From: a virus
Taxonomy: Duplodnaviria; Heunggongvirae; Uroviricota; Caudoviricetes
DNA: 39,777 nt
Virus record (IMG/VR): IMGVR_UViG_2537562191_000049
Strand: one strand, 5' to 3'
Made by a program: the position numbers and the translations under genes. The notes beneath the pieces are model-generated. The model did no database searches and was not told the DNA's origin. It saw only the letters and a list, made by a program, of their open reading frames with translations. Positions 5,189 to 5,461 of the stretch are shown here, in pieces; the first letter of the stretch is position 1; each line of letters opens with the position of its first letter.

Positions 5189-5362
5189 TTATTGGATGAC
5201 AACATCGCCCTTTGCCTCAAGTTTCATCAATAACTCCATTCGATAAGCTATCTCTGCCTGAATTGACCTATGGCATCTTTTTGCTGATTCGCGGATATGT
5301 GAATCAACCTTTTCTGTAAAACGAACCTGACGCGGCTTGATGGAAGATATCTTTTCAGTCAT
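5189..5362 (-). CDS. Arc-like ribbon-helix-helix protein (57 aa), absent from the supplied ORF track
   Basis: ATG at 5362 preceded by SD aggag at 7 nt; translation MTEKISSIKPRQVRFTEKVDSHIRESAKRCHRSIQAEIAYRMELLMKLEAKGDVVIQ has the beta-strand then helix pattern of Arc/CopG RHH proteins (compare P22 Arc ...PQFNLRWPREV...RSVNSEIYQRV...). First gene of the minus-strand ant operon. Confidence 0.55.
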   Translation of the reverse strand: MTEKISSIKPRQVRFTEKVDSHIRESAKRCHRSIQAEIAYRMELLMKLEAKGDVVIQ

Positions 5363-5461
5363 TATGCACTCCTGTTTTTAAAAAACTCATAATCTCACTT
5401 TTTGTAGTTTGATTATTCACTCACACTCAGTATGAGTCAATGAATTTTTTATGGTGAACTA
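5363..5461. promoter_or_regulatory. Divergent promoter/operator region between the Arc-like/ant operon and the CI-like gene
   Basis: 99-bp AT-rich spacer between divergent starts; contains inverted repeat ACTCA-gta-TGAGT (5425-5437) and a TTGATT -35-like hexamer (5409-5414). Promoter boundaries not resolved. Confidence 0.4.

Follow-up and report, generated by a model that had tools for sequence, protein, structure and literature searches.

The sequence considered here is a 39,777-nucleotide stretch of tailed-phage DNA (Caudoviricetes; IMG/VR record IMGVR_UViG_2537562191_000049), called the window throughout, and its subject is a 57-codon gene on the minus strand, which lies directly upstream of an antirepressor gene in the place held by arc in phage P22. 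The window is a P22-like (Lederbergvirus) prophage of Escherichia coli: 25 kb of it is 99.6% identical to E. coli O111:H8 chromosomes, and the region around the 57-codon gene is 95% identical to the Lederbergvirus phage JEP4. With positions 5100-5500 as the megablast query, 71 of 5426 complete E. coli genomes gave a match, 28 of these covering at least 80% of the query. The locus is the "ant moron" position of P22-like phages, between the homologues of gene 16 and of the tailspike gene, where the minus strand is the direction of the late operon. The small gene is predicted to be the first of an antirepressor operon and stands behind the strongest sigma-70 promoter match of the region; a putative antisense RNA resembling P22 sar lies across its junction with ant, and a repressor gene of the helix-turn-helix (HTH) and Peptidase_S24 type diverges from the operon (Table 1).

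The 57-amino-acid (aa) open reading frame (ORF) was missing from the ORF track supplied for a preliminary description of this DNA, most likely because of the 60-aa cut-off that is the default of the ORF tool. That description placed its ATG at 5362 behind a Shine-Dalgarno (SD) sequence AGGAG, which the ORF listing (5189-5362, minus strand) and the sequence both bear out, and placed directly downstream a Bro-N antirepressor, which is indeed found at 4489-5115 (minus strand) carrying Bro-N and P22_AR_C domains. The gene has already been called publicly, as JEP4_15 in phage JEP4 and as WP_021518013.1 ("hypothetical protein") in RefSeq E. coli genomes including that of E. coli HS. No NCBIfam model covers its product, which is a full-length match to phrog_10182, a family of unknown function. 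Among 11 alleles of the ORF the variable nucleotide columns number 16, 7 and 48 at codon positions 1, 2 and 3, and synonymous codon differences exceed non-synonymous ones two- to four-fold; comparison with the Yersinia allele gives 26 synonymous and 11 non-synonymous codon differences. The ORF is under purifying selection and is therefore, beyond chance, a real coding sequence. It is extremely improbable that the ORF is not expressed as a protein and owes its conservation to overlapping regulatory DNA or RNA: its 3' end does overlap the terminator region of the sar-like RNA, but the third-position bias runs along the whole ORF, synonymous changes outnumber non-synonymous ones even at 70% nucleotide identity, the SD sequence and ATG are conserved, and homologues at 36-46% identity retain both length and motifs. 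The ant frame is also open upstream (5116-5205, minus strand), in the window and in most related loci, as far as an ATG that lies within the arc-like gene at 5205. An Ant protein extended by 30 residues from this in-frame ATG was considered and rejected, because substitutions there are silent when read in the arc-like frame but change residues in the alternative one. Selection is thus seen in the arc-like frame only, and the upstream extension is probably not translated.

By its sequence and predicted fold, the 57-aa protein belongs to the ribbon-helix-helix/Arc lineage as a distant relative of P22 Arc. The preliminary description had recognized the strand-then-helix pattern of Arc/CopG proteins, and the ribbon-helix-helix assignment is supported because sequence signatures, transitive hidden Markov model evidence, structure prediction from a diverse alignment and fold searches all point to it. 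The Pfam families that recur across the 57-aa family are all ribbon-helix-helix families, namely ParD_like (E 8e-4), Arc (E 0.011) and FitA-like (E 0.12), each match being below threshold. PF03869 (Arc) is matched at E<=0.1 by 25 of the 33 aligned family sequences, and P0033, an Azotobacter protein 45% identical to the 57-aa protein, reaches 29.1 bits, above the gathering score of 20.4. A search of 1.8 billion representative proteins, all of them scanned, returned only five matches at E<=0.001, with P0033 at E 8e-4; one of the five, a 2909-aa repeat protein, was discarded as spurious. A scan of genome contigs gave only two loci. P0033 and a Yersinia member of the close family carry the NCBI name "Arc family DNA-binding protein", and among PDB sequences the family profile matches the Arc-type regulator AmrZ best (E 0.026).

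The P22 Arc and Mnt sequences translated from NC_002371 align gap-free to the 57-aa protein over the beta-strand, helix A and the whole of helix B. R14, R32 and E37 (R13, R31 and E36 of Arc) are invariant across Arc, Mnt and the 57-aa family; R41 corresponds to Arc R40 and S33 to the helix B N-cap Ser32, hydrophobic residues occupy every Arc core position, and distant family members have Gly at the position of Arc G30 (FGRT). The DNA-contact, triad, N-cap and core roles of these residues in Arc are established. The protein shares with Arc (PDB 1PAR, 1ARQ) and AmrZ (PDB 3QOQ) the gapless succession of strand, helix A, turn and helix B, the turn motif (H/G)-R-S-x-(N/Q)-x-E-I, the beta-strand Arg and the Arg-Glu-Arg triad; unlike Arc, it has Cys-His for Asn-Gly before the turn and a different C-terminal tail (GDVVIQ). 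AlphaFold2 (AF2), given the more diverse alignment A7, predicted an extended N-terminus and helices at residues 17-29 and 34-51 with a predicted local distance difference test (pLDDT) score of 83.9, and these helix boundaries are identical to those predicted from the Arc alignment. The order of the fold, N-terminal beta-strand, helix A, tight turn and helix B, is thus predicted for the 57-aa protein, and fold searches with the A7 model returned nearly exclusively ribbon-helix-helix structures, the best being AmrZ, Arc, CopG and others of this class.

Ribbon-helix-helix proteins also serve as antitoxins of toxin-antitoxin pairs, and ParD_like, at E 8e-4, is the best direct Pfam match of the 57-aa protein. 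Its score is below the family threshold, however; the protein has no C-terminal toxin-binding extension, ending in the AF2 model about six residues past helix B, the readable downstream genes always belong to the antirepressor family and never to a toxin, and no toxin-family Pfam match was obtained among the scanned neighbour genes, so that an antitoxin role is very improbable.

The 73 bp between the arc-like stop codon and the ant start codon fold on the plus strand at -35 kcal/mol (z -5.0), against -21 kcal/mol (z -2.2) on the minus strand. The plus-strand fold consists of two hairpins followed by UUCACUAUUUUUAUU; hairpin 2 (5147-5181) and the U-run are terminator-like and reach the arc-like stop codon, and in hairpin 1 the loop contains UUCCUU, the complement of the AAGGAA that serves ant as SD sequence, where the P22 loop has CUCC. 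In the P22 record (NC_002371) the beginning of ant contains the sar promoter, and sar itself extends from the base that precedes the ATG of ant as far as the stop codon of arc, which its terminator overlaps. The window junction aligns to that of P22 at TTGCTAyAmTATTCATGTTrGTTT, at TTACTGACA and at GAAGCCC...GGGCTTCA, and the best blastn match of the junction within 8 kb of P22 is the sar promoter (21/24, E 8e-4). The sar-like -10 element is kept across loci whose antirepressor N-termini are not homologous. In the terminator stem 96.4% of the cells are paired across 15 sequences, compared with 86.1% in shuffles (0 of 500 reach the observed value) and at most 54.5% with slid partners. Five pairs of this stem are changed on both sides, and 14 of its cells are G-U, which on the sense strand would be A-C mismatches; the G-U cells fit the antisense strand only, and the structured RNA is therefore the antisense one. 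Furthermore, a covariance model (R1) built from 14 non-P22 sequences found the annotated P22 sar as its top match in the P22 locus, with the correct coordinates and strand. The putative RNA at 5116-5190 (plus strand) is probably a divergent sar, judged by its position, shape and covariation. A sub-threshold match to Rfam SymR at 5113-5184 was taken as similarity of shape and not as homology.

The preliminary description gave the divergent region as 99 bp, and it is confirmed as 5363-5461, with the start of the divergent gene at 5462. The geometry of the predicted promoter in this region matches that of the annotated P22 Pant. The enterobacterial loci fall into three dissimilar intergenic types, A (the window), B (Klebsiella-type loci) and C (Yersinia), all of which keep the -35 hexamer, the -10 hexamer, AGGAG-N6-ATG and AT-ATGAGTTTT at fixed places and differ in their spacers; AT-ATGAGTTTT is located about 20 bp downstream of the -10 hexamer. 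An inverted repeat, ACTCA-gta-TGAGT, had been put forward as a possible operator. Its existence and its position over the promoter stand, but it is not significant by itself, since 74.5% of dinucleotide shuffles of the 99 bp contain a repeat of this class (arms >=5, loop <=10). Because of this position the repeat is plausible as an operator, for either the Arc-like protein or the HTH repressor. Four copies of the pentamer ACTCA/TGAGT are present in the 99 bp, against 0.49 expected (P ~5e-4 in a post hoc test), and palindromes of the TGA(A/G)T kind are found equally far from the arc-like ATG in type B (ATATGAAT-A-ATTCATAT) as well as in a pair of distant metagenomic cassettes (GTGAAT-TG-TTCAT); in other cassettes a second site often lies downstream. 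The enrichment of the TGA(G/A)T pentamer across cassettes is likewise a post hoc result. Assigning the operators by covariation across types A to C failed, the Arc-like beta-strand and the HTH recognition helix both being invariant.

Two further observations concern this region. In near-identical type-A intergenic regions (L012, L014, L031 and L034, compared with 5428-5433 of the window) substitutions are concentrated in the centre of the repeat, where tac becomes tag, tgc or ttc and TGAGT becomes CGAGT. At 5389-5416 a further inverted repeat, an imperfect one (ATAATCTCACT / AGTTTGATTAT; 11-nt arms, 82% complementary), covers the -10 hexamer and the predicted start site of the operon.

The divergent gene encodes a repressor of the CI/LexA type. 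It was aligned to LexA, to the immC repressor of the window and to its cassette homologues. Neither this repressor nor its homologues have Ala-Gly at the cleavage position, and in the window protein the nucleophilic Ser is replaced by Ala (GEAM versus GxSM) with the Lys kept; the homologues from other cassette types keep GxSM. Because the Ala-Gly site is missing and Ala stands at the nucleophile position, the repressor is probably non-cleavable, and we regard it as a probably stable, not SOS-responsive protein and a functional analogue of Mnt.

Taken together, the locus is probably a variant of the P22 immI region, in which a divergent Arc-family protein heads the antirepressor operon together with a sar-like RNA and an HTH-S24 repressor. 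By analogy with P22, the promoter at 5440-5412 would fire after infection, and the operon would be read through the two antirepressor-type genes and the 73-aa gene to the terminator at 3444-3423. As the Arc-like dimer builds up, it would close the promoter by binding short repeats of the TGA(G/A)T type in or near it, and the antisense RNA of about 75 nt (5116-5190, plus strand), starting just outside the ant start codon, would pair with the ant ribosome-binding site and limit translation of the antirepressor. In the lysogen the divergent HTH-S24 repressor would hold the operon off, as Mnt does in P22. We infer DNA binding and autoregulation by the Arc-like protein, the assignment of operators to proteins and the transcripts from this analogy. 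The 57-aa protein might instead be a ribbon-helix-helix regulator without an autorepressor role: it could switch on the divergent repressor gene, or it could serve as an adaptor or anti-antirepressor whose partner is a protein and not DNA. By consensus the divergent repressor gene has no convincing promoter, which would fit the need for an activator, but the family is invariant at the residues with which Arc contacts DNA (Arg in the beta-strand, and Arg-Ser where helix B has its N-cap) and the gene occupies the exact position of arc relative to the sar-like RNA and ant; we consider such a role unlikely.

Several results weigh against the reading as an immI variant. The 57-aa protein scores 16.0 bits (E 0.011) against Pfam Arc PF03869, whose gathering threshold is 20.4, and hhalign against Arc alone gives a probability of only 14% (37% against the Mnt homologue of the window). 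From the shallow alignment A1 (81-93% identity) AF2 predicted with confidence a single continuous helix from residue 17 to residue 51, so that a ribbon-helix-helix fold seemed not to be predicted until the diverse alignment overturned this result; once A7 had given a helix-turn-helix, the single long helix was rejected as an artefact of low alignment diversity. The AF2 models are of a single chain and none contains the beta-ribbon, and the E-values of the fold searches are weak (~0.1), the protein being tiny. Model R1 scores the P22 sar at only 17.7 bits (E 0.15), and the Rfam sar model (RF00262), which scores P22 at 97.8 bits, matches nothing in the window at E<=10, not even when only 111 nt are searched. 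Finally, the candidate operators vary between cassette types while the putative DNA-contact residues Q12 and R14 do not, so that the HTH repressor may be the protein to which the spacer palindromes belong. On the AF2 side, comparison of models m16e8b50d6ba8 and m59789278658d indicates that about nine added sequences of 30-46% identity switched the prediction from a single helix to a helix-turn-helix.

The variation of the candidate operators would fit a layout that is the reverse of that in P22: the repeat at 5425-5437 and the equivalent spacer palindromes would serve the HTH-S24 repressor as operators, and the site of the Arc-like protein would be another one, such as AT-ATGAGTTTT. Types A, B and C differ in their spacer palindromes and share the Arc-like beta-strand KPRQVRF; divergence is faster in the HTH-S24 proteins, along with the spacers, than in the Arc-like proteins; and ATGAGTTTT is the sole element besides the promoter and the SD sequence that the three types have in common. 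However, the recognition helix VQRQIAAYEGG is also identical in A, B and C, so that covariation cannot separate the two proteins, Arc binds the Pant spacer in P22, and TGA(A/G)T recurs in very distant cassettes with differing HTH helices. We regard the reversed layout as a serious possibility, at somewhat less than an even chance.

As a variant of immI the locus can be compared with P22 (NC_002371) feature by feature. Both lie between the gene-16 and tailspike homologues and have a strong promoter whose 17-bp spacer contains a palindrome. In both, a small Arc-family gene comes first and is followed by an intercistronic antisense RNA, putative in the window, with its promoter in the first ant codons and its terminator at the arc stop codon, then by an antirepressor whose C-terminal domain is that of P22 Ant; a terminator precedes the tailspike gene. 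The two differ in that the Arc-like protein of the window is only 23% identical to Arc, its divergent repressor is of the HTH-S24 type instead of Mnt, with a Mnt homologue at the far end in convergent orientation, the N-terminus of its antirepressor is Bro-N instead of P22_AR_N, two extra genes follow ant, the antisense RNA escapes Rfam RF00262, and the operator candidates are unrelated to O-arc and O-mnt. The P22 order Pant-arc-ant, as first described for this locus, is thus real as far as promoter, arc and ant are concerned and is joined by a predicted sar-like RNA at the position of sar; it does not extend to a divergent Mnt, so the locus is a variant and not a copy.

The ant morons of the HS-1 and CUS-3 types have been described as apparently lacking arc, with ant hence controlled in a manner other than that of P22 (Villafane, Casjens et al. 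2008, PMC2629481). The HS-1 type moron is the same locus as the one described here, the prophage of E. coli HS being 99.8% identical over 5100-5500 and encoding an identical 57-aa protein. On the comparison made here the statement is revised for HS-1: a predicted, diverged arc and a sar-like RNA are present, and only Mnt is replaced. Antirepressor modules that lie outside the immunity region, under the control of LexA or a phage repressor, are known from Gifsy, Fels-1, 186 and N15 (Lemire et al. 2011, PMC3121763). Like them, the window has an antirepressor operon in the late region of a lambdoid prophage that is predicted to be held off by a separate repressor. In contrast to them, 5363-5461 contains no host LexA box at up to one mismatch, the repressor is encoded beside the operon and looks non-cleavable, and an Arc-like protein and an antisense RNA are added as further predicted layers of control.

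Table 1. Genes and predicted regulatory features of the arc-like/ant locus in the window
Feature	Position	Strand	Evidence or remark
Tailspike gene	1109-3046	-	
Mnt homologue, Arc family, 84 aa, convergent with the ant operon and adjoining the tailspike gene	3182-3436	+	Pfam Arc 3.8e-15
Terminator-like hairpin and T-run, end of operon	3423-3444	-	
73-aa gene, function unknown, last in the operon	3451-3672	-	phrog_4977 1e-53; start overlaps stop of preceding gene
Second antirepressor-type gene, 242 aa, same operon	3672-4400	-	phrog_1726 "anti-repressor" 2e-99; "KilA protein" in JEP4
Antirepressor gene (ant), Bro-N and P22 Ant C-terminal domain, 208 aa	4489-5115	-	Pfam Bro-N 1.1e-10, P22_AR_C 1.3e-14; phrog_245 "anti-repressor Ant" 1.8e-53
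Extended -10 TGcTACAAT for the sar-like RNA, in the first ant codons	5101-5109	+	Equivalent of TGcTATACT in P22 Psar
Putative sar-like antisense RNA, ~75 nt, across the arc-like/ant junction	5116-5190	+	Fold, covariation, alignment to annotated P22 sar
arc-like gene, encoding a predicted 57-aa repressor of ribbon-helix-helix type; beta-strand ~R11-F15, helices 17-29 (A) and 34-51 (B)	5189-5362	-	ORF, selection, phrog_10182, Arc/Mnt alignment, AF2, fold matches
Shine-Dalgarno sequence AGGAG, six bases before the ATG	5369-5373	-	AGGAG-N6-ATG kept in all three enterobacterial intergenic types
Pant-like sigma-70 promoter, TTGACT (5440-5435), 17-bp spacer, AATAAT (5417-5412)	5412-5440	-	10/12, best in 3000-6500
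Inverted repeat ACTCA-gta-TGAGT, candidate operator over the -35 hexamer and spacer	5425-5437	.	Sequence scan
HTH_3 and Peptidase_S24 repressor, CI/LexA-type, in Mnt position	5462-6103	+	Pfam
Hydrophobic ORF, 62 aa, phrog_21338 (unknown function), directly after the repressor gene	6164-6352	+	
Gene-16 homologue, last of the DNA-transfer genes	6370-8235	-	Gene map

Several neighbouring genes deserve comment. The Mnt homologue aligns over its whole length to P22 Mnt and is named "Arc family DNA-binding protein" in RefSeq, where its start is at 3149; it lies 1.9 kb from the divergent position that Mnt occupies in P22. No operator or promoter was recognisable for it in 3047-3181, the interval between the tailspike gene and the Mnt homologue, in which CTGTACA occurs twice. 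The 62-aa ORF behind the HTH-S24 repressor gene may be a prophage-expressed moron in a position comparable to that of P22 sieA; E. coli HS has a different gene of 212 aa (L050 4569-5207) in its place. A separate immC is present elsewhere in the window, comprising the repressor (31689-32405), cII (31001-31366) and N (33159-33431) genes. Just downstream of cII in the early-right operon, 29495-30708 (minus strand) holds an IS3-type transposase ORF (HTH_Tnp_1, 30382-30708) and an adjacent ORF of 296 aa, and the prophage might be defective through this IS3-type insertion.

The combination of genes found in the window recurs well beyond E. coli. The loci compared come from Escherichia, Salmonella, Klebsiella, Yersinia, Azotobacter, Pseudomonas and metagenomes, with alleles of the 57-aa protein from 100% down to 36% identical. 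A divergent HTH_3 and S24 gene lies upstream at every arc-like locus examined, and an antirepressor-family gene (Bro-N, P22_AR_N, P22_AR_C, KilA-N, ANT or pRha) follows at every locus with a readable downstream gene; some copies carry P22_AR_N in the antirepressor. The antirepressor is freely exchanged; what is retained is the set of repressor, arc-like gene and junction segment. The cassette occupies the ant moron of P22-like phages as well as the tail-gene clusters of lambda-like siphoviruses, between an NlpC/P60 tail gene and the tail I/J genes. A second immI module, of the true P22 type, was observed on the Yersinia contig L005 (6164-7669), about 2 kb downstream of the cassette; it consists of an antirepressor with P22_AR_N and P22_AR_C, a gene of 66 aa that matches Arc weakly and a divergent 98-aa gene of the Arc/Mnt type, and this Yersinia phage therefore has two antirepressor switches side by side. 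It is conceivable, and we advance it tentatively as a view we hold with less than even confidence, that an antirepressor open to exchange forms, with the sar-like RNA, the Arc-like repressor and the non-cleavable HTH-S24 repressor, a portable, self-contained immI cassette with several operator specificities, which moves between the late operons of P22-like podoviruses and the tail clusters of lambda-like siphoviruses, from the Enterobacterales to Pseudomonas and Azotobacter. Such a cassette would set up a second, SOS-independent layer of heteroimmunity and prophage cross-talk.

The locus is an ordinary, previously overlooked variant of the well-understood P22 switch and involves no new principle. 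Its description corrects the comparative literature, in which the HS-1 type ant moron was thought to be without arc and so to be controlled unlike P22, and proposes a function for unnamed phage proteins of 57-60 aa (phrog_10182; "hypothetical protein" in RefSeq). It suggests that the arc-sar-ant core of P22 has a wider distribution and a more modular build than can be seen with the Rfam and Pfam models, and that the role of Mnt can pass to a CI-type protein with a degenerate protease site. The findings should be useful for annotating the prophages of E. coli and Salmonella, including those of O111:H8 Shiga-toxin-producing strains, and for predicting which resident prophages may be inducible in trans by a superinfecting phage.

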